Origin: a virus
Lineage: Duplodnaviria; Caudoviricetes
Direction: 5' to 3' (one strand)
IMG/VR virus record: IMGVR_UViG_2706796476_000001
Location: 87,418-151,417 of that record
DNA length: 64,000 nucleotides
A program made the translations under genes and the position numbers. This document shows, piece after piece, positions 16,115 through 26,197 of this stretch (its first letter is position 1; each line of letters opens with the position of its first letter). Below the pieces are notes generated by a model. The model searched no databases, was not told the origin of the DNA, and saw only the letters and a list, made by a program, of their open reading frames with translations.

Positions 16115-17770
16115 TTATGCTTCCCAGTCATTAACTACATTACCGTTGTCGTCTTTGCCGCCTTGCGGAGTGGCATTCGTGTTATTGTGGTGTTTAGACT
16201 GTCCGTCTTTACCGACATCTTGATTGAACGAATCTTTACCATTTACATTGTCCATATTCCCGTTATAACCGGTTTGCTGGGCTATAAACTGGTTAGCGTC
16301 CATCTGACGTTGGTATTCTAGTTGTTTCTCTTGAATGATTTGTCCAAGACGCTGTACGTGTACACCTGCAAGGGTTACATCTCCACCATCAACTTCAGGA
16401 TAACCAAGTTCTTTACGAACATCGTTAATTGTAAGTCCGATTTTAGCCTTAGACTCAAGAATAGAAATAATTTCTGCTTCTGTTTTGGCATCTCCACCAA
16501 CAAAGTTAAATACGTACTTCTCTCCAAACTGCGACACTATGTATTTGTTAACAGCATCCTCAATGAATTTCAATAGAGGTTCTAGTCCTTTGTCTTTAGA
16601 GTTACGGTACTTCTCAGCACTGCTGCCTTCATTCAGAGTATTACCGGAATGACCCGTTGCTCCTCCTCTGTTCGGGAAGTTTATTTCTGATGGGTCGATA
16701 GAATAGATAGAACAGATAACGTTGATTAGATAGTTAAGCCATTTCTCAAACTCCATGTCTTTAGAAGACTGAGTCATGTTGACGAATTTGACATCCTCAG
16801 CAGTAATAACAGGGATTTTCCATGCTCCGTTGATTCCACTAAACATTGACGTCCATTCTCTTCTGAAGGCGTTTAGAGCTTGGTTAGATTGTTCTTGTCC
16901 TGTTTTAATATGTAGTAGTCCTCGAGTTGTCCCGCCTTGAGCAAAGAACCGAGCATTAAACACTTCGGTGTTGTCATGGTACTGGAGGTGATTTAGAGCG
17001 ATCTCTAGTTCCGGGTACCCATATTTACCGATTGTTAAATCTGTTCTAGGGTTACTTACTTCCCACGCCATTTCTTTTGCCTTGAACTCTGCGACTACCT
17101 TATCGTCTATAACTTGTACATAGCGTGTACCATCTTTAGCTTTTCGTTCCTTGCCATCTTCATCTACTGCTACGTATATAGTTGAGGCATCCACAGCCTT
17201 GAAGTTGTGCAACTTCTTGTCTTTAGAGTAGACTAGTTCAAAGTTAATCTTATCGTAGGTTAACCGATCTCGAACAAGCTTCTTTACAAATGAGCGGAAG
17301 TTATCTCGAGTGAAATCATTCTCGATCCATCCAGTATTTTCGATAAACTTCTCGATCTCTTTAATCTTCGTAATATTATGTTCGTTTGGCTCCTCTAGAG
17401 GGTCTTTAAGCCTAATCTCGTACCCTACACCTTTATCACTATTGCGAGCAGGTGTACAGAACATGGAAACTTGGTTCACCCGTGTTATAATAATCGCATT
17501 CAGGATAATGTTCTTTCTCGACCACATCTTCAGCAGCTGAAGGAGATTCTGCTTGCCATGAATGGAAGGGGCGTCCCTATACTCAGGGTTCATGGACAGA
17601 CTACCAATGATGGGCTCTTCGTAAGCCTTGGGCTTATCCGACTTGGAAGTTTTCCCTTTTATAAGGATTGCCTCGTCTTCTATCTGCTTGATTCGTATAG
17701 CCATGTCTTGATCAATATTAATGACTTCTTCTTCTTTTTTACTTTTGAATAAAGTATCAAACAATCCCAT
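16115..17770 (-). CDS. Portal protein
   Basis: 551 aa; FFAQGGTTRGLL, DMEFEKWLNYLINVICSIYSIDPSEINF. Confidence 0.95.
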   Translation of the reverse strand: MGLFDTLFKSKKEEEVINIDQDMAIRIKQIEDEAILIKGKTSKSDKPKAYEEPIIGSLSMNPEYRDAPSIHGKQNLLQLLKMWSRKNIILNAIIITRVNQVSMFCTPARNSDKGVGYEIRLKDPLEEPNEHNITKIKEIEKFIENTGWIENDFTRDNFRSFVKKLVRDRLTYDKINFELVYSKDKKLHNFKAVDASTIYVAVDEDGKERKAKDGTRYVQVIDDKVVAEFKAKEMAWEVSNPRTDLTIGKYGYPELEIALNHLQYHDNTEVFNARFFAQGGTTRGLLHIKTGQEQSNQALNAFRREWTSMFSGINGAWKIPVITAEDVKFVNMTQSSKDMEFEKWLNYLINVICSIYSIDPSEINFPNRGGATGHSGNTLNEGSSAEKYRNSKDKGLEPLLKFIEDAVNKYIVSQFGEKYVFNFVGGDAKTEAEIISILESKAKIGLTINDVRKELGYPEVDGGDVTLAGVHVQRLGQIIQEKQLEYQRQMDANQFIAQQTGYNGNMDNVNGKDSFNQDVGKDGQSKHHNNTNATPQGGKDDNGNVVNDWEA

Positions 17771-17800
17771 GTGTATATCACATCCAATCTTTCTTTACTA

Positions 17801-18058
17801 CTAGCTGTATTTGAAAACTTTGCGGCTGCTTAGAACTGTATCGTAGTCTTTCTCAACTTCCGCACCTACTGAGTCTGTAAGTAATACTGTGTCATTGTCA
17901 ATAATTGCTTGTATTTTTAACATTTCACCGTTTATAACAGCGAAAACAGAAATATCCTTGCCCTGAATATCGTGGTAGTAGGATACTACTTCAATCCAGT
18001 CAAGATGACCTACAGCTCGTTTAGCTTCCATCCATTTTTTATCTTGGCTAAATTTCAT
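17801..18058 (-). CDS. Conserved hypothetical protein before the portal gene
   Basis: Start revised to ATG 18058 after AAGGAGG; late-type motif TCTTATATTA at 18075-18084. Confidence 0.75.
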   Translation of the reverse strand: MKFSQDKKWMEAKRAVGHLDWIEVVSYYHDIQGKDISVFAVINGEMLKIQAIIDNDTVLLTDSVGAEVEKDYDTVLSSRKVFKYS

Positions 18059-18191
18059 AACATCCTCCTTAATATAATATAAGACTAAGGTGTCTCTATT
18101 TACAATTATATCATACACAGGGGCTTACACTCTCTTCTCATATAAGGATAACAGAAAAACCACACCTTATTGGCGTGGTTTGTAGTAGTTA

Positions 18192-18578
18192 TTAACTTCG
18201 TCTAGCTCTTGGAGTTTCTATATGCCCATAAACACTTAAGTCCCTACCTTGCAGTCGTTCATCCTGCGACCATTCGTATTTCGTTTTGCCTTCGGCGTAC
18301 TTGGCATCGTTCCGTGTAAGAAAGAGAGCTGGGATACTAGGGAATCCTACCCATGTCGAGTGTTGAAAAAATCCTTCAGAGAATCCGTAAGTTTTACAGC
18401 AATGATCAACAAATTCTTGAGTCTCAGCTAATTCTTTTTCGAGTTCTTTGACTCTTTTTTGGTCATCAGCAATCTTTTCCTTCATCTGCTTAATCTGCTC
18501 TATGTGGCTTGGGATACGTCCTTCATACTCATCTTTAGCAATCTTAAACATCTTGTTTACGATTGTTGTGTCATTCAT
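18192..18578 (-). CDS. Hypothetical coiled-coil protein, paralog of 18571..18942
   Basis: Coiled coil followed by C..YGF..G...LF.....A..A...TK. Confidence 0.75.
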   Translation of the reverse strand: MNDTTIVNKMFKIAKDEYEGRIPSHIEQIKQMKEKIADDQKRVKELEKELAETQEFVDHCCKTYGFSEGFFQHSTWVGFPSIPALFLTRNDAKYAEGKTKYEWSQDERLQGRDLSVYGHIETPRARRS

Positions 18579-18942
18579 TTGGAAGTCTCCCTTCCTCTAC
18601 CAACAGTTTTGCTAGACTGTTTACCCCGGCAGACATAGATGCCTCCATCAGGAAGTCGTGTTTAGTCGTACGACTAGCTCGGTCTGCTGCCTCTTTGTCA
18701 TAAAATAGCTCTCCATTTCCAGCTAGGTCGTCTTTATAACCTCCAATAACAAAACCAAACATTTCACAAGCTGCTTTAACTGCTTCTCTGTTATTTTCTT
18801 GTTCATTTTTAAGCTTTGCTAAACTTGCTGCTGTTTCTTCCAATTCCTTCTCTAGTCTAGCAATTTCACAGTCTAGCTGACTTTCTCTGACTTTGTGGGT
18901 GTACCGCATGGTCTTAAATACCGTTTCTTTCAAATAGTCCAT
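18571..18942 (-). CDS. Hypothetical coiled-coil protein, paralog of 18192..18578
   Basis: RBS AAGGAGG; same motif order. Confidence 0.75.
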   Translation of the reverse strand: MDYLKETVFKTMRYTHKVRESQLDCEIARLEKELEETAASLAKLKNEQENNREAVKAACEMFGFVIGGYKDDLAGNGELFYDKEAADRASRTTKHDFLMEASMSAGVNSLAKLLVEEGRLPNE

Positions 18943-19024
18943 TTCGTCTTCCTCCTTATTTTAAAGCGAATTATCATCGTTATTTAAAGTGCCCTAGAAT
19001 CGAGATATGCTCCGTTTGTTGTTA

Positions 19025-19402
19025 TTAAGCATCCACGATTGGAAAGTGTATGCCATTTACAACAAATGATCCTACCGAGTAGTAGCACCCTCCATTACCC
19101 GAATCTGCATACATTTCAGCTAAAGCGATCGGATTTTGGTTGTGGTATAGTGTAACTTTAACTTCGTTTACATCCACGTCTTCATGCGGAATACTGACTT
19201 TTTCTCCAATTTCAACATTGGTAATAACTGCATCAAGTTTTACGTTACTGAACGTTCCATGCGCAAGAGCGCAACAGTCGTTTTCACTCATTTCAAGGGT
19301 AATAACTGTACCATCGTCTAACACAAGTTTATTGTGATCCCATTCCACAATCCGTTTATACAGTAAATGTTTGTTTAAGTCTTTTAAATCACCATAGTCC
19401 AT
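19025..19402 (-). CDS. Conserved phage hypothetical protein
   Basis: RBS present; DCCA and SGNGGCYYS motifs. Confidence 0.75.
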   Translation of the reverse strand: MDYGDLKDLNKHLLYKRIVEWDHNKLVLDDGTVITLEMSENDCCALAHGTFSNVKLDAVITNVEIGEKVSIPHEDVDVNEVKVTLYHNQNPIALAEMYADSGNGGCYYSVGSFVVNGIHFPIVDA

Positions 19403-19424
19403 TTCGTATTCCTCCTTTTTATGA

Positions 19425-19496
19425 TGGGTCCTAAGAGACTCGAACTCCTATCCTATCAGTTATGAGCTGATTGCTTTACCTTTAAGCTAAAGACCC
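19425..19496 (-). tRNA. tRNA with CAT anticodon (Ile2-like or Met)
   Basis: GGGTCTT/AGGACCC acceptor stem, loop CTCATAA, GTTCGAGT T-loop; no encoded CCA. Confidence 0.9.
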
Positions 19497-19499
19497 GTA

Positions 19500-19955
19500 A
19501 GTTAACGTAGGGTCAAACCGGCAACCACCCTACCTGTATTCAGCACCGCCACTCGACACCCGAGGGTACCTCTCGGCAAGTATTGGCATAGAGCCTTCTA
19601 CGGTTTTAATTCGGGTTTTAAAAGTACTCTCCGTGGTCCGCATTGGCAAGAGGCGTGAGAGCATCTATGACGTAGAAGAGGAAGAAAAATTCATTATATC
19701 TTGTAGTTGCTACATTCCATAGCCTAACGTGCGGTGAGCCGGATTATTTGTACGTCGTAAGTCGTTAATCGTATACCCGTTTTACATTCCCACACTTTTT
19801 GGATTGTCAGTAATGTCCCCTATTTTAGGGTTAAGCAGTTGAGATATGCTCTCAACCAAAGCAGATTTTCCTCTTCTATCGTCTACTGCTGGTTTGCACC
19901 AGCTATCAAGGTAGAACTTGTCTACCCTCATAGCTAAGGCAAAATGCCTAGCTGC
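19500..19955 (-). ncRNA. Candidate ~450-nt structured RNA downstream of the DIP1984-like gene
   Basis: No ORF of 60 aa or more; many hairpins, a GCAA tetraloop and a long-range helix between about 19669-19690 and 19865-19883. Confidence 0.6.
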
Positions 19956-20477
19956 TTACATGTACTTATCAGCGTTTCCAAAAGAGATGAAGTGAGTATG
20001 GTTTGCTCTCTCAATAGCATTGGACAGTGAGTTAGCAAACTTCTCTATTTCTTCTCCTCGAGCCTTAAGCGACTTCGGGTCAAACTGAGCGTACTTATAC
20101 TCTACCTCTGAAGAGTTGTAGCTAGGTAAACGCTCAGTTTTTTTAGATTGACCGAAACGTTTCAGAAGCGAAGCCTCTGCTCTCAGTTGCTTAGCTAGTT
20201 CCAACGCTTCAACAATTGTGTAAACTGTGCCTGTTGAAGTTTCGACAGTCGCCTCTGAGTTAGTTGCTGCAATCCTTAGAGAGATTTTTCGGTAGTCATC
20301 TCGAACGTCATTTAGCTCTTTAGTGACTTCTGCAAATGTTCTCTCAGGTTTTTCATACTCTTCATCTTTACGAGCCGTTACGTATGCAATGTCGTCACGT
20401 TCACGTACCAGTTCGTGAAGTTTACGAGAGATAGCGTTCTTTAACGGTAAAGCTTCAAACAGATAAACTTTTGTCAT
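19956..20477 (-). CDS. DIP1984-like (septicolysin-annotated family) helical protein
   Basis: L.EAL.LK..I..K, I...N, TIVEAL..A..L, L...IE.AN pattern recalled for this family; own sigmaA promoter. Confidence 0.6.
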   Translation of the reverse strand: MTKVYLFEALPLKNAISRKLHELVRERDDIAYVTARKDEEYEKPERTFAEVTKELNDVRDDYRKISLRIAATNSEATVETSTGTVYTIVEALELAKQLRAEASLLKRFGQSKKTERLPSYNSSEVEYKYAQFDPKSLKARGEEIEKFANSLSNAIERANHTHFISFGNADKYM

Positions 20478-20547
20478 AGTTATCGTCTCCTTTAATTTGT
20501 CTGTAACTAGACTATATCATATAACATTTTACACTGTCAACGGTTTT

Positions 20548-20841
20548 TTACAATCCACATATATCTTCACCTACAAAAGATTCACCGTTCTTGAAACTTT
20601 TGTATAGTCGTTCAAGTTTATTAAGGTTTTGCTCAAGGTCCCTTATTTTATTGTGTAGTTCGTTATCTAGTCTAAACCTTATTAATCTTTTGCCGTACTC
20701 TGATAGGGTTGGGTTTTTCAAGTCACTTAGTAACTCAGCGTGCTCCTTCTTAGACTTATCCAAGTTATATCTATTTGAATTTAGTCTAGTTTTTATTTCT
20801 GTTTCAGATACTTCGGTATAAAGGTAATCATAGTGAGCCAT
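20548..20841 (-). CDS. Hypothetical coiled-coil protein, paralog of 20929..21222
   Basis: Both 97 aa; share YD.L...VS, RLI..LD.EL, GE....DIC.L. Confidence 0.8.
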   Translation of the reverse strand: MAHYDYLYTEVSETEIKTRLNSNRYNLDKSKKEHAELLSDLKNPTLSEYGKRLIRFRLDNELHNKIRDLEQNLNKLERLYKSFKNGESFVGEDICGL

Positions 20842-20928
20842 AGTTATTCATCTCCTACCGTTGTTATCAGTATGTTTACTGTAACTACACTGTATCATAC
20901 ATCATTTTACCCTGTCAACATTTTTTTT

Positions 20929-21222
20929 CTATAACCTGCAAATATCTCTCCGTGTAACTTCTTCACCGCTGTTAACTCTTCTAATAAGTTTTTCGTACTT
21001 TCTAACTTTCTCTTCATACATCTTTATCCTCTGTCTCAGCTCTCCGTCTAGGTATTCTATTAGTCTTTGTGCACCAATCTCAGAGATATCTCTCTTTGTC
21101 ACGTCTCTTATAATCTCCGAGTCTTCCACCTTACACATTTCTAAATGGTACTGAGCTATTTCTAAAAGTTCCTGAATGGCTTCGAGAGACACAACTCTAT
21201 CTAATAAATCGTAGTTTTCCAT
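20929..21222 (-). CDS. Hypothetical coiled-coil protein, paralog of 20548..20841
   Basis: Same motifs; duplicated promoter and leader. Confidence 0.8.
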   Translation of the reverse strand: MENYDLLDRVVSLEAIQELLEIAQYHLEMCKVEDSEIIRDVTKRDISEIGAQRLIEYLDGELRQRIKMYEEKVRKYEKLIRRVNSGEEVTRRDICRL

Positions 21223-21381
21223 AGTTAACCATCTCCTGCCGCTTTATCGGTATGTTTACTGTAACTCCACTATATCGTACAACATCTTACATTGTCAACA
21301 TTATTTATGTAAAATAAAAAGGGTCAGACGCATCCAACCCTAGTAAGTATACGCCGAAGCAATATACCGCAATTAATTTCA

Positions 21382-21906
21382 TTATAACATACTGAACCAG
21401 TTATCAATCTCGTACCAGTCGTTCATTCGTACGAATCGTTTTTCTTCTCGGTTGTGTGGAGCATCGAATAGGATTGCCGTACCTTTAAAAGTTTCAAGAT
21501 TATGCACTCCGTCGTCAATCATAAAATCTGCTCTTATGATGCTCTTGTCTCCACATAGTACTACTTTGCTATGAGGTATGTACGGGAAGTGCTCTGTAAG
21601 CCATTCTAGCTTAGCTGTGAGCGATCTAGGGTGAGTCGTAGCTGTAGTTACTATATAGACGTCATAGTTCTCTATGAGCTTTCTAACAGCTACTTGGCTG
21701 CCTTCTATAGGCTCTAGGTTTCTGAAGAAGTGATAATCAAGGTGCCTATACACGTCATTTTCTGTCTTAACAAACTCTTTGATGTCCCATCCTAAGATGT
21801 CGTCTATTTTTAAATGGGGATCGTCATGAAGGTTAATGCAAGATACCCAAGCGCCAAGAAAATCAGCTAGTACACAATCCATGTCAATTGCAATAACTTT
21901 TTTCAT
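21382..21906 (-). CDS. 5'(3')-deoxyribonucleotidase (HAD superfamily, NT5C)
   Basis: IAIDMDCVLAD motif I, KLEWL.EHFP, DFMIDD motif IV. Confidence 0.92.
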   Translation of the reverse strand: MKKVIAIDMDCVLADFLGAWVSCINLHDDPHLKIDDILGWDIKEFVKTENDVYRHLDYHFFRNLEPIEGSQVAVRKLIENYDVYIVTTATTHPRSLTAKLEWLTEHFPYIPHSKVVLCGDKSIIRADFMIDDGVHNLETFKGTAILFDAPHNREEKRFVRMNDWYEIDNWFSML

Positions 21907-21934
21907 AAGACCTCCAGTTTGTTTGACTTAAATA

Positions 21935-22018
21935 TGGGACAGGTGGGATTCGAACCCACTCAGTGATCCGACACGAGATTTACAGTCTCGCCTAACTCTC
22001 CAACGTTAGCGCTATCCC
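21935..22018 (-). tRNA. tRNA-Tyr(GTA)
   Basis: CGAGA-CTGTAAA-TCTCG anticodon arm, long variable arm, GGTTCGAATCC. Confidence 0.92.
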
Positions 22019-22131
22019 GGGTCACGACTAGTTGGCGCTCTAGTCGTTTAAAAAGGTAATCAAACGTATAACTATGTCACTAGTTTATTTGTTCTGAAAT
22101 ACGGAACACAAGATGAAATAAAGACTTACAT

Positions 22132-22203
22132 TGAGAATACCAAGACTCGAACTTGGATAACTGGAGTCACGTCCCAGCGCTTTACCGTTAAGCTACATTC
22201 TCC
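22132..22203 (-). tRNA. tRNA-His(GTG), atypical
   Basis: G-1 present; loop ACGTGAC (A32, C33); discriminator A. Confidence 0.75.
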
Positions 22204-22212
22204 ATGATGATA

Positions 22213-22286
22213 TGGTATGGTCTAAGGGAGTCGAACCCTTACCCGCTGGTTGGAAGCCAGCAATTCTACCGTTAAACTAAGACCAC
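22213..22286 (-). tRNA. tRNA-Gly(TCC)
   Basis: GCTGG-CTTCCAA-CCAGC anticodon arm; encoded CCA. Confidence 0.9.
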
Positions 22287-22292
22287 ATGAGA

Positions 22293-22362
22293 ACTGCCTA
22301 GAGAGGAGTTGAACCTCTCTTGTGATGGTGTTTGAGCCACCACACTAATCGTAGATAGGCAG
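22293..22362 (-). ncRNA. tRNA-like element with a UCA triplet and minimal D-arm
   Basis: CTGCCTA/TAGGCAG acceptor stem, GAGAGG-TTCAACT-CCTCTC T-arm, TGGTG-GCTCAAA-CACCA arm. Confidence 0.65.
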
Positions 22363-22379
22363 TATTATTACACTTAAAA

Positions 22380-22841
22380 ACCTATTCGCATGTCTTTGGT
22401 CAAACTGGTTCTAACTTTCACTAAAGCCTAGAATTGTATAAGCTTAAGTTATCCCTTCCGTCTCTTCTACGGGTAGTCACCCTCGTAGATTCTGTGCAGA
22501 GTACGGAACTTAAGATGATAATACTCTAAGTAGCAGAACCTGACAGGTGATCAGCCCGTTGCACGGATCAGGTGCTTAATAGCTCTGCTACCCATAGAGT
22601 AGGATTCCCAGTAAAGAAACCGAATAAGACCACTGGGAACGGGGTTGTCCTGCTTGGCAAAACCACTCGAACCCAAGCTAGACTTCCCTGTCTTATTTTG
22701 TATACCTCTTTCTCACAGGTGGTTAAATATGTGGAGGCGGTACAAGTTGCCCCGTTTAAGCCGCAGGGGAAGGCAGCTGCAATATTGTTTAATGCCGTTG
22801 CATCGGGACGAACCACTTGCGCTAGCTCGTTAGTGTGCTAG
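22380..22841 (-). ncRNA. Candidate structured non-coding RNA(s) within the tRNA cluster
   Basis: Long nested helices (TACTCTA..GGTAGCAGA/TCTGCTAC..TAGAGTA; CTTAAGTT/AACTTAAG; TTCCCAGT/ACTGGGAA); no convincing ORF. Confidence 0.55.
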
Positions 22842-23243
22842 TTACCTGTTTAGAATACGCACATTCATTTCTTCTACTACCTCATCTCCATCGTGCAGGT
22901 AGTAGTGTTCAACTAACGATCGTTGATAGTTATCCGGCAAGTCATATAGAATAACTGTCCTATTCTTGATAGCCCCTGAGTCAGGTAAGGTAGTTTCAAA
23001 AACCTTATGGTCTTCAGTTATCTGAATATCTCCTACGGTAGGGTTATGCGCCCAGTGGTTGGTAATCTCGCTAAGAGGGTTGTTAGCAGTACCTCTAAAT
23101 CGGTAAAGAACTCCCGGATAGTTATACATCTCCACTCGTTCAGTTACGTTCCCAACATTGAACACGTAAGCTACCTCTAGTGAGACACCCGTAGATGCTT
23201 GATTTTCTCCCTCACTGCCTTCTTCAATAATGTTGTCGTTAAT
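22842..23243 (-). CDS. Hypothetical protein (GTG start at 23165 or ATT start at 23243)
   Basis: Open frame; RBS-like sequences precede both candidate starts. Confidence 0.65.
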   Translation of the reverse strand: MNDNIIEEGSEGENQASTGVSLEVAYVFNVGNVTERVEMYNYPGVLYRFRGTANNPLSEITNHWAHNPTVGDIQITEDHKVFETTLPDSGAIKNRTVILYDLPDNYQRSLVEHYYLHDGDEVVEEMNVRILNR

Positions 23244-23414
23244 GTTGTTTCACCTCCCTATATAAAACCTAACCTGTTAGGTGTGGGTGTAAGTCTAAGG
23301 TGAAAATAAAGTCAAAATCAAAGTCAAATATAGTCAGGTGTGAGATAATATACTAGAGGTAATCACACCAATTACCTCTGAGTAGGTTGCATTTAACGAC
23401 TGTTTCCTAGTCTA

Positions 23415-23483
23415 TTGCTAAGGCAAGAGTTGAACTTGCTAAACAAGGCTTATGAGACCTCGTCGGGTACCGACCCCTCAGCA
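23415..23483 (-). tRNA. Degenerate tRNA-Met(CAT)-like element with a shrunken D-loop
   Basis: TGCTGAG/CTTAGCA acceptor stem, GAGGT-CTCATAA-GCCTT, GCAAG-TTCAACT-CTTGC; D-arm GGGT-CGGT-ACCC. Confidence 0.65.
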
Positions 23484-23562
23484 TCGTACCGAGACGAATC
23501 TCGGTATTAGGAGGTAAATAAGAGAAAAAAGTATTTAATCATGAAGGTAGTTTCCTACCTAA

Positions 23563-23635
23563 TGGACTGAGAAGGATTCGAACCTCCGACACAGGGATTT
23601 TCAGCCCCCTGCTCTACCGACTGAGCTACCAGTCC
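23563..23635 (-). tRNA. tRNA-Phe(GAA)
   Basis: Canonical cloverleaf; loop CTGAAAA. Confidence 0.95.
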
Positions 23636-23757
23636 AAGGCGCCTCACCCCTCGTAAGGGATGTGAGACCGATCGGTGATAGAATCACCTCCATACGACTA
23701 TGGGAGCACTCAATGGAACCCCTCGCATACAGAGGTGACTAGCTAATCCTTGAAAGG

Positions 23758-23824
23758 ACGATCTGAGAGGAATCGAACCTCTTTACCTATCGCAGTAGTG
23801 CTTTTACCAATAAGCTACAGACCG
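23758..23824 (-). ncRNA. tRNA-like element with a truncated anticodon arm
   Basis: Acceptor CGGTCTG/CAGATCG, normal D and T arms; anticodon arm only CTA-CTGCGA-TAG. Confidence 0.65.
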
Positions 23825-24016
23825 GTATAAAAAAGTACACGAGCGTTTATACAAGGTGTATAAGTGGACTCGCATACAGAGTGGGGTCGGGGGTGGGTGA
23901 CCCCTATCTACATCTTTCTCGCTTGAGATGCAGATGGTTGAAAAAAAAAGTAATTACACCAAAAGAGGTACTGTTAAATCAATGAATAAGCCTACATGCA
24001 AGATTTAAGGTACCAA

Positions 24017-24088
24017 CTGTCGTAGTAGGACTCGAACCTACAACTTCTTGATTAACAGTCAAGCACTCTACCATTGAGTTATACGACA
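24017..24088 (-). tRNA. tRNA-Asn(GTT)
   Basis: Canonical cloverleaf; CTTGA-CTGTTAA-TCAAG. Confidence 0.95.
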
Positions 24089-24282
24089 AGGTTCAAGGTC
24101 TGTAGGGGAGAAGTACGGTGGTGGTTGTAAACAACTCCCCGTTACCTTGGAGTTTAGAACATATGATTAATTTCGCATGGTTGAGTTAAATAAAGGAGGA
24201 ATAACCAACGTATGCTCGAGACAAAGGATTCAGCGATTCACCGCCTCGTGCAATGACCAGTGAATCCCTGCCTGTATATACA

Positions 24283-24291
24283 TTATAACAT
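24283..24291 (-). promoter_or_regulatory. Extended -10 promoter (TGTTATAAT) for the tRNA cluster
   Basis: Perfect TGnTATAAT pointing into the tRNA cluster. Confidence 0.6.
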
Positions 24292-24653
24292 ACTCTGATG
24301 TTATAGGGAACCCTTTATTTTAAATTTATTTAAAAAAGTTTAGTAGAGAAGATTAAACTTCTATACTATAGAGAAAAAGGAGTAAACTGTGCGGATGTTT
24401 GTCCTTCGTCTTCAACCTGTAACTACTATAACATATCTCTCTGAAGTCTGCAACATGTTTGGTGATTTTCGGCGGCGCTTTTCTTGTTTACTTTTTTTTT
24501 TGACGTCGACTATAAGATAAACTTTAAAGATAATATGAATAATTAATGGTTATATAATATATAAAGTAATTAATATATAATACAGAGCACTTAAAATAAA
24601 AATATGACAAGAATATCTCAACAAGAGTCAGAAACCCTTATGTATCAAGGGAT

Positions 24654-24747
24654 TAAAATAGGACAAAAATTTTAAATACCCTCATTCAGAACCTTCTCCC
24701 TAATCGTATCAGAAGGAATAACTCACATATTTTTTTGTCCTATTTTA
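24654..24747. repeat. 16-bp inverted repeat in an AT-rich divergent intergenic region
   Basis: TAAAATAGGACAAAAA at 24654 and TTTTTGTCCTATTTTA at 24732. Confidence 0.8.
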
Positions 24748-24826
24748 TGGATAGAGTATAAACAGAAGGAACATAATAAGCACATCTCAGAATGAAATGC
24801 GCTTTTAAAACATTCTTGAAATTAGG

Positions 24827-24857
24827 TGTTGACTTTTAATCAACAATGGGTTAAGCT
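24827..24857 (+). promoter_or_regulatory. sigmaA promoter of the XRE gene with palindrome TGTTGA-N7-TCAACA
   Basis: TTGACT-17-TAAGCT; the palindrome overlaps the -35. Confidence 0.65.
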
Positions 24858-24890
24858 AGGTTTACAAGTAAACGATGGAGGTTGTTAAAC

Positions 24891-25211
24891 ATGACAACAA
24901 CAGTAAACAAACCAACAAAGACAAATAAAACAGAAGAAGGTGTCAGAATGAAAACTGTAAAACGGCTCAAGAAGTTTCGAATGGATTCAGGATACTCGAT
25001 TAATACGCTTGCAGCAAAGCTAGGAGTTGACTCTTCAACTATCTCTTACTGGGAAAGTGGTAAACGATTCCCTCGAAGAAACGTTTTAGAGCAACTTGAA
25101 GATTTGTTCAACGTTAGCTACCGTGAACTATTTGATGATCTAACTAAAGCAGAGATGAAAGAAATTGAGAGACGCATGAACAACATGTACAAAACAAATG
25201 AATGGTATTGA
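24891..25211 (+). CDS. XRE-family HTH transcriptional regulator
   Basis: RLKKFRMDSGYSINTLAAKLGVDSSTISYWESGKRFP; ATG 24891 after GGAGGT. Confidence 0.92.
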   Translation: MTTTVNKPTKTNKTEEGVRMKTVKRLKKFRMDSGYSINTLAAKLGVDSSTISYWESGKRFPRRNVLEQLEDLFNVSYRELFDDLTKAEMKEIERRMNNMYKTNEWY

Positions 25212-25238
25212 AAAAAGAGACCTTGTTAGGGTCTCTTT
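25212..25238. terminator. Bidirectional terminator
   Basis: AAAAAGAGACC-TTGTTAG-GGTCTCTTT between convergent genes. Confidence 0.75.
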
Positions 25239-25473
25239 ATTCGTATCCTACTACAACTTCAACGATCATCTGAGGATTAATGTACTTTACAGCCTCTGTC
25301 AGTTCGACAGTACCGTACACTTTTAACAATCCTGCTCTACTTCCGACAATACTGTTCCATACAAATGCTTCCGGACGTTCAGGAACGTTAAAAGAAGATA
25401 CATAGGCTGGGTCTACATAATAAACTGCATCATTAAGTAACTTGATCTCGATTTTACTGACCTTTTTTGCCAC
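25237..25473 (-). CDS. Hypothetical (possible virion) protein
   Basis: Last ORF of a leftward late-type operon. Confidence 0.7.
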   Translation of the reverse strand: MAKKVSKIEIKLLNDAVYYVDPAYVSSFNVPERPEAFVWNSIVGSRAGLLKVYGTVELTEAVKYINPQMIVEVVVGYE

Positions 25474-25493
25474 TAGCTAAACCGCCCTTCGTT

Positions 25494-25820
25494 TTATTTT
25501 CCGCTGATCATGCTGAACAGGTAAGTGATTAAACCCCCTAGAAAAGCCATAAGAGCTTTCTCGATCAGTTCACGTTGCTTATCACTCTTACGGTCTCCCG
25601 CACTCTCAAGCAGCTCCAGCTCCTTTTGAAGCTGTTCCATTTTGTAGTAAAGGTGGGATTGTTTTTCCTGCTGGATTGCAATGTCTTTATCTAAGGAAAA
25701 GACGATGTTCTTGAGTTCATCAACAACCCCACGCAACTCGGTAGTGTCTGTTTCTTGGTCTTGGATTTTACCCTCGATACTTCTCAGTCTCTCGATAAGT
25801 TCACCATTTTGGTTCATCAT
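25494..25820 (-). CDS. Coiled-coil protein with a C-terminal TM helix (XhlA/holin-accessory-like)
   Basis: Long heptad repeat followed by ALMAFLGGLITYLFSMI. Confidence 0.6.
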   Translation of the reverse strand: MMNQNGELIERLRSIEGKIQDQETDTTELRGVVDELKNIVFSLDKDIAIQQEKQSHLYYKMEQLQKELELLESAGDRKSDKQRELIEKALMAFLGGLITYLFSMISGK

Positions 25821-25846
25821 TCAAACCCCCACCTTTCTATAGTATA

Positions 25847-26197
25847 TCAAATGATGCCCTGTCTCTTTGTATCTCCTAGTTCAGTGTCATAAGACACATA
25901 AAAACTCTCTAAGACTTTTCTGCTTTCTTCGTCAGCGATGTTTCCGTAGTTTGAGTCAGTGTCTATTCTAAAGTAAGCAGAACCAAACTCCTTCAGATCA
26001 AGCTTCACCTCTATAAACTTGTCGTCTGTCGTGTTCTTACAGTACTCGTATGTAAAGTCGACTAATACTCCTAAGTGAAGTAGTCGATGAATTGAGTACA
26101 TGTGGAATATTGATCGGTCAGTATTTATGAACGTTCCGATTAGGTCTCTAAACTCAAGTTTCACTGTACTATGGTACTTATTCTCATTAATCTTCAT
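25847..26197 (-). CDS. Hypothetical protein
   Basis: RBS GAAAGGAG; overlaps the upstream gene. Confidence 0.75.
   Translation of the reverse strand: MKINENKYHSTVKLEFRDLIGTFINTDRSIFHMYSIHRLLHLGVLVDFTYEYCKNTTDDKFIEVKLDLKEFGSAYFRIDTDSNYGNIADEESRKVLESFYVSYDTELGDTKRQGII

Follow-up and report, generated by a model that had tools for sequence, protein, structure and literature searches.

Does the ORF-free stretch that lies directly behind a small gene of no known function in a Bacillus phage encode a real RNA, and, if so, does this RNA work together with the protein encoded just upstream of it? We examined this question in a window of 64,000 nucleotides (positions 87,418 to 151,417 of the 151-kb virus record IMGVR_UViG_2706796476_000001), in which a first-pass annotation had described, on the minus strand, a sigma-A promoter, a DIP1984-like gene and a ~450-nt structured RNA with 7-nt periodic repeats ending at a tRNA. 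The window comes from an Agatevirus-like Bacillus phage: among 50,697 phage records, its only DNA relatives are the Agatevirus phages phiAGATE, Bobb and SDFMU_Pbc (Herelleviridae, Bastillevirinae; hosts Bacillus pumilus and B. subtilis), which are 87-89% identical over the locus, and three further near-relatives are Logan metagenome contigs. Protein and pattern scans of IMG/VR returned only the two known relatives. The observation itself is confirmed, since all of the features that had been described are present on the minus strand (Table 1).

Table 1. Features of the gene-RNA-tRNA block, with positions in the 64,000-nt window.
Positions	Strand	Feature	Supporting observation
20511-20540	-	Sigma-A-type promoter, TTGACA, 18-nt spacer, TG-extended TATAGT	Consensus scan scores 11 of 12; the same promoter type heads the neighbouring small-gene cassettes
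19956-20477	-	Gene for a 173-aa DUF6847/DIP1984-fold (predicted) protein (phrog_25222)	Pfam PF20935, E 4e-9, 37 bits (cut-off 27), residues 39-161, and 36.1 bits in a six-frame search of the genome; NCBIfam NF038048, 41.8 bits, E 1e-10 (cut-off 70); AlphaFold2 pLDDT 97; Foldseek top hit 3KDQ
19669-19955	-	Family RNA domain (~287 nt)	
19888-19953	-	5' hairpin cluster H1 (19953-19932), H2 (19927-19909) and H3 (19903-19888, GCAA loop), joined by invariant AUGA and UGAUA linkers	Conserved in 6 phage copies and 4 Bacillus chromosomal copies; compensatory changes in H2 (GGGUAGA/UCUACCU against GGGUGAA/UUCACCU) and in H3
19865-19883	-	5' strand of the long closing helix	Pairs with 19690-19669; a closing helix of different sequence is kept in all 15 class-B cores tested, dG -13.6 to -28.9 kcal/mol
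19838-19856	-	Internal hairpin, loop GCAUA (GCGUA in bacteria), preceded by CUGC (CCGC in bacteria)	Covariation in a MAFFT alignment of 15 class-B cores: 92% of cells paired, 6 of 7 pairs changed on both sides, score 0.77 against 0.27 in shuffles (0 of 500 reach it) and at most 0.22 when the partner is slid
19728-19783	-	Heptad tract: AAACG, then UACG, AACG, UACG, UACA at spacings 8,7,7,7, then degenerate units (AAUC, CACC, CACG)	AC chain p about 0.007; AC columns invariant across 15 class-B sequences
19669-19690	-	3' strand of the closing helix; end of the family domain	Homology with the bacterial copies ends here
19497-19668	-	Extension found only in these phages (~170 nt)	
19616-19663	-	Branched hairpin followed by CUUUUAAAA, possibly a leaky terminator (inferred)	Seen directly in the sequence, where bacterial copies have an intrinsic terminator; did not meet the criteria of a terminator scan
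19497-19615	-	Agatevirus-specific 3' extension with hairpins at 19581-19551 and 19533-19507, running up to the tRNA	Compensatory changes among the phage copies in hairpin 19581-19551 (ACCUG/CAGGU against ACUUG/CGAGU, and CCGAG/CUCGG against CCGAU/AUCGG); no counterpart in the bacterial loci
19425-19496	-	tRNA-Met (CAT)	ARAGORN; Rfam tRNA model, 68.3 bits

We first looked at whether the 459 bases between the stop codon and the tRNA could be coding. No ORF reaches 60 aa, the longest being 49 and 44 aa, and the relatives differ there by 1-, 4-, 6- and 7-nt indels, which is not a coding pattern. Parts of this spacer are 95-97% identical among the Agatevirus relatives, against 82-95% for the gene, whereas the DNA on both sides of the gene-RNA-tRNA block cannot be aligned between these phages. 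The block is therefore kept as a unit while its flanks are reshuffled. The whole-region folding z-score is modest (-2.7), and the case for an RNA rests on comparative evidence and not on energy.

We then searched for homologues outside the phages. Chromosomal homologues of the protein occur in the B. licheniformis group (Bacillus sp. WMMC1349, B. glycinifermentans and B. licheniformis) at 47-50% identity, and the DNA directly after their stop codon is homologous to the first ~230 nt of the phage RNA (nhmmer E 1e-13 to 1e-11), with compensatory changes in H2, H3 and the closing helix, although the GNRA loop of H3, which the first-pass annotation had pointed out, is not conserved in these Bacillus homologues. 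Between two Bacillus species, the conservation covers the promoter, the gene and ~280 nt of RNA and then stops, and the genomic contexts differ. The '450-nt RNA' of the phage is thus composite, consisting of the family domain and of the extension specific to these phages.

To determine how widespread the pair is, a profile of the protein was run against sampled genomes and found the gene in 9 of 91 Bacillaceae and in 74 of 401 Bacilli genomes. We read the downstream DNA of 80 bacterial loci, of which 76 have an intact gene; in 62 of these 76, the gene is followed by an RNA of the same plan, namely one to three hairpins, a long closing helix, a tract of short units about 7 nt apart and then an intrinsic terminator. 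In one of them (locus L050), a ~370-nt insert with a small ORF separates the gene and the RNA. The pair occurs in about a sixth of the sampled Bacilli species. There are two main RNA classes with almost no sequence similarity to each other: class B, which includes the phage, has the CCGC motif, a hairpin with loop GCGUA and units U-N-A-C-G/A, while class A has a first hairpin with loop GGUGAGACUCC and units U-N-A-C-C. The protein tree splits with 100/100 support into two clades that match these classes exactly, although such a congruence can arise from simple linkage, and the phage proteins are sister (100/99) to the B. licheniformis-group copies, which fits an exchange between phage and host lineage in a direction that the tree does not resolve.

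The link between gene and RNA was also examined from the side of the RNA. A covariance model of the class-B core (R1) found five places in 151 Bacilli genomes, all of them directly 3' of the gene and one of them not in the seed, and it found one place in the phage genome. It also gave weak hits, at the right place, to class-A and divergent class-B RNAs, which hints that the classes are distantly homologous. As for the class-B internal hairpin (Table 1), covariation is seen in the first hairpin of class A, which is 97% paired, with double changes in 8 of 9 pairs and a score of 0.70 against 0.28. MAFFT and RNAalifold could not register the closing helix across divergent copies, so it was tested sequence by sequence in the 15 class-B cores; duplex folding on wide windows over-extended and was discarded. 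G-U pairs appear among the variants, which fits an RNA of this strand. No Rfam 15 family, including GOLLD, ROOL, raiA, OLE, T-box, tmRNA and RNase P, matches these RNAs: at E<=1, positions 17000-26000 of the window gave only tRNAs, and the search of the window and 11 bacterial loci gave in addition only group II intron parts, one DUF3800-VIII RNA elsewhere in the B. glycinifermentans locus L020 and chance sub-threshold hits.

We next turned to the periodic tract, which is the shared core of these RNAs. The five AC dinucleotides of the window copy lie at a spacing that dinucleotide shuffles of the 300 nt reach in about 0.7% of trials, and most relatives have chains of 7-10 such units (p<0.003). 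The tract is longer than first annotated, since its two or three degenerate units align to full units in the Bacillus homologues. The unit consensus is U at -2 (77-80%), any base, A, C, and then C (63%) in class A or G/A (93%) in class B. The commonest spacing patterns, 7,7,7,8,7,7 and 7,7,7,7,8,7,7, contain one 8-nt step and recur in both classes, whereas one long-branch protein (locus L044) has a different word, UCG. The earlier description of the tract as apparently single-stranded is only weakly supported by folding, with a mean pairing probability of 0.38 in the tract against 0.62 elsewhere in the window copy, and of 0.52 against 0.62 over 35 homologues, and so it remains an inference. 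We also considered whether the units could be Thr codons (ACN) or anticodon-loop mimics (GUNAC), but a period of 7 is out of frame and the base before U is not conserved. Self-pairing of neighbouring GUUAC/GUAAC units is not consistent across loci.

Fourteen genomes offer a natural experiment, as in these the gene is followed directly by a terminator with no RNA. A class-A model (R2) finds no such RNA anywhere in the 14 genomes, while it finds exactly one, next to the gene, in each of four control genomes. The 14 proteins form one clade nested within RNA-bearing relatives, so that this may be a single loss, and the relaxed sites described here rest on several substitutions but possibly on one event. 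In this clade, S152, which is invariant in all 68 RNA-bearing sequences, is kept in only 2 of 14 and replaced by A, R, E or D, N159 is kept in 6 of 14 and K37 in 5 of 14, whereas the other ~20 conserved positions stay at 86-100%. The only strongly class-specific residues on the same helix are 156 (E in class B, N in class A) and 160 (H or Y), which sit on the same helix face. This pattern is what would be expected if S152, N159 and K37 contact the RNA and if 156 and 160 help to choose the base after AC, and is indirect evidence for protein-RNA contact. It also shows that the protein, which persists under constraint without the RNA, has some RNA-independent role.

Concerning expression, no promoter-like or terminator-like site lies between the gene and the RNA in the phage, and hence co-transcription is the simplest reading. 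Where the bacterial copies have a strong terminator, the phage has a branched hairpin followed by only UUUU, then the structured spacer and tRNA-Met, so that RNase P cleavage could define a 3' end, as the first-pass annotation proposed; this is plausible from the gene order alone, but the last ~170 nt before the tRNA are not part of the family RNA. For the L020 copy, RNA-library contigs from several studies cover the gene and the RNA, and one contig bridges them, but this is weak support, because these are assembled contigs of older runs for which DNA carry-over is not excluded, their depths cannot rank the parts and no RNA ends can be read. The module has no constant neighbours overall. In eight class-A loci, a B3_4-domain gene (the PheRS-beta editing-type domain) lies directly upstream on the same strand with a gap of -23 to +15 nt, forming an operon of B3_4, DIP1984-like gene and RNA, and nine loci have a divergent QueG, although these loci may share one ancestral arrangement. 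RtcB was not among the 25 commonest Pfam families in the 1.5-kb flanks of 36 Bacilli loci. Together with the tRNA cluster of the phage, the B3_4 and QueG neighbours are a weak pointer to tRNA or RNA metabolism.

The explanation that we favour, with moderate confidence, is that the gene and the ~287 nt behind it are one two-part module, transcribed together from the promoter at 20540. In this view, the RNA folds into a domain closed by the long helix that displays a row of about seven U-N-A-C-R units spaced 7 nt apart, usually with one 8-nt step, and several copies of the helical protein would bind this row side by side through a polar surface that includes S152 and N159 on helix 4 and K37, with residues 156 and 160 tuning the preference for the base after AC, resulting in a defined protein-RNA particle. 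In the phage, transcription would probably continue through the weak hairpin and the phage-specific structured spacer into tRNA-Met, where RNase P cleavage would free the 3' end of the RNA. The analysis establishes that the RNA is real, structured and conserved, that it is co-inherited and has co-diversified with the gene, and that three protein sites stay constrained only where the RNA is present, whereas direct binding, the presence of several protomers per RNA, one protomer per unit and any TRAP-like counting are inferred from sequence alone. The interpretation given in the first-pass annotation, an uncharacterised protein-ncRNA module in which an oligomeric protein binds one heptamer per subunit of its own downstream RNA, is therefore only partly supported: the family assignment is broadly right, gene and RNA form one conserved module and the 7-nt periodicity is a conserved core feature, but oligomerisation and the subunit-per-heptamer idea remain hypotheses. 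Speaking against the particle, the proteins are mildly acidic (net charge -8 to +1), which is unusual for RNA binders and unlike TRAP, and the phage copy has only five clear units and a modified closing helix.

Other readings of the same data are less likely. The RNA could be a cis-acting 3' UTR that controls the stability or translation of the upstream mRNA, possibly as the protein's own autoregulatory operator, without being part of a working particle. This would fit the position of the RNA, which always lies in cis after the stop codon, its end at an intrinsic terminator in bacteria, the lack of a separate promoter and the existence of the gene without it; however, a domain of 180-290 nt with a conserved closing helix, conserved loops and a counted row of units, kept from phages to distant Bacilli through complete sequence turnover, is far more than stability elements need, and we consider this reading unlikely. 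Similarly doubtful is the possibility that the RNA works mainly with another partner, such as tRNA-handling enzymes or a host RNA-binding or RNA-cleaving factor that the row of units decoys or sponges, the adjacent protein being only a co-expressed helper. The phage tRNA cluster and the B3_4 and QueG neighbours speak for it, but these neighbours are confined to some class-A lineages and absent from the phage, and the RNA-dependent constraint on S152, N159 and K37 points to the adjacent protein itself.

A type-III-like toxin-antitoxin or abortive-infection pair, in which a repeat RNA neutralises a toxic protein, is suggested by the small, self-contained and horizontally moving nature of the module, found in phages and chromosomes in varying contexts, but it is very unlikely, as fourteen genomes keep an otherwise constrained protein without the RNA and the features compared below do not fit. 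A role at the DNA level only, for example as protein-binding iterons, is the least likely: some units resemble -35 hexamers (TTGACA-like) and GTNAC palindromes, but the helices keep pairing through G-U intermediates and double changes on one strand only, the element is bounded by stop codon and terminator, RNA-library contigs cover a relative's copy, and a 7-bp period does not match the DNA helical repeat.

If the pair is a particle, it would give a large family of 'septicolysin/DIP1984/DUF6847' proteins, annotated in thousands of genomes including plasmids of clinical isolates, its first functional handle, and it would add a new structured RNA class to bacteria and phages as well as a new way for a protein to read RNA, a helical bundle on a 7-nt periodic rail. 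The RNA-loss clade names specific residues, with 156 and 160 for word preference, which makes the system directly testable by mutation. The position of the module among early cassettes and tRNA genes, and its maintenance as a block, suggest a role during infection. More tentatively, and slightly less likely than not, this may be a widespread and so far undescribed ribonucleoprotein of Bacilli and their large phages, in which the small protein reads a counted row of about seven units on its own 3' RNA with read-out residues (S152, N159, K37, 156 and 160) that co-vary with the unit word, and which phages carry inside tRNA clusters for a job in tRNA or RNA handling during infection. New here are the host-phage sister relationship, the two co-diversified classes in Bacilli, the RNA-loss clade with its relaxed sites and the B3_4 operon.

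Finally, we compared the module with known systems. The protein has the predicted fold of the DIP1984 family (Pfam DUF6847; often labelled 'septicolysin'): its AlphaFold2 model has four long helices plus a small sheet, and its only significant structural match is 3KDQ, a Corynebacterium diphtheriae protein of unknown function (Foldseek E 3.2e-6, probability 1.00, TM 0.63/0.70; next hit E 0.35), while a phmmer search of PDB sequences gave nothing meaningful. At ~170 aa rather than ~150 aa, and below the NCBIfam cut-off, it belongs to a divergent sister group and is not a core member; we found no paper on the function of the family in the searchable literature, nothing there matched the gene-RNA pair, and the partner RNA is not part of any family description. 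Like the large uncatalogued or 'ornate' ncRNAs found near tRNAs (GOLLD, ROOL) and RNA-protein pairs such as OLE with OapA/B or Ro60 with Y RNA, this is a conserved structured RNA of unknown function, found in phages and Firmicutes, next to a tRNA gene here and tied to a dedicated protein, but the size, architecture and partner protein are all different. With type III toxin-antitoxin systems (ToxIN, CptIN, TenpIN), it shares a protein gene plus a repeat RNA forming a compact mobile pair that also occurs in phages; however, the RNA lies downstream rather than upstream of the gene, the units are of 7 nt and not tandem repeats of ~36 nt, there is no endoribonuclease fold and a PADLOC search gave no hit. 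In its inferred mode of action, the module would work most like TRAP with the trp leader or HutP with hut mRNA, Bacillus RNA-binding oligomers that read spaced triplets, the HutP sites (UAG-N4) also having a 7-nt period. It is not a member of either, since there is no Pfam hit to these proteins and no evident regulatory target, the predicted fold is a helical bundle and not a beta-sheet ring, the word is UNAC and not (G/U)AG or UAG, and the RNA is the gene's own 3' region inside a closed domain rather than a 5' leader attenuator.

We next looked at the surroundings of the module, both in the phage and in the Bacilli loci carrying the DIP1984-like gene. In the phage, a second ORF-free stretch, lying within the tRNA cluster, is ~80% conserved and unannotated in Bobb and phiAGATE. 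It gave no Rfam hit and was not matched by R1, the covariance model of the class-B RNA core. This stretch is possibly another large structured RNA. The tRNA-like sequence scored 44.9 bits with the Rfam tRNA model but was not called by ARAGORN; it is possibly a degenerate or unusual tRNA. The two 97-aa genes are paralogous, and each lies behind its own TTGACA-18-TA(T/C)AGT promoter, which is the same promoter type as the one driving the DIP1984-like gene; they are present or absent in different Agatevirus relatives.

Positions of features in the phage window and in the Bacilli loci (L numbers)
Sequence	Position	Strand	Feature
Window	22290-22845	-	ORF-free stretch of ~550 nt between a 107-aa gene and tRNA-Gly
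Window	23758-23824	-	tRNA-like sequence
Window	20548-20841	-	97-aa gene (phrog_13293)
Window	20929-21222	-	97-aa gene (phrog_13293)
L040, L042, L047, L048, L049, L053, L054, L056	gene at ~1500-2010 of each		DIP1984-like gene with a B3_4-domain gene (PF03483) directly upstream
L087-L092, L094-L101			Gene kept, RNA lost
L050	~380 nt after the gene's stop		~370-nt insert with a small ORF between gene and class-A RNA
L044	downstream of the gene		RNA with periodic word UCG
L020	2405-2470		DUF3800-VIII RNA (RF03075)
L013	5400-7934	-	Group II intron with its reverse transcriptase

In eight Bacilli loci with a class-A RNA, the B3_4-domain gene lies on the same strand as the DIP1984-like gene, with a gap of -23 to +15 nt, and nine loci have a divergent QueG gene. 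This may represent a three-part operon or, alternatively, one inherited gene arrangement. Fourteen genomes keep the gene but have lost the RNA genome-wide, and S152, N159 and K37 have become variable; the protein evidently has an RNA-independent role there.

In L050, the insert replaces the first hairpin of an otherwise normal class-A RNA, whereas in L044, a long-branch member of the family, the usual closing helix is kept but the periodic word differs from UNAC, which makes it a possible third specificity class. In B. glycinifermentans (L020), a DUF3800-VIII RNA (58.8 bits, above gathering) is found ~400 nt downstream of the second copy of the module, and in Bacillus sp. WMMC1349 (L013), a group II intron sits just downstream of the module, to which it appears unrelated.
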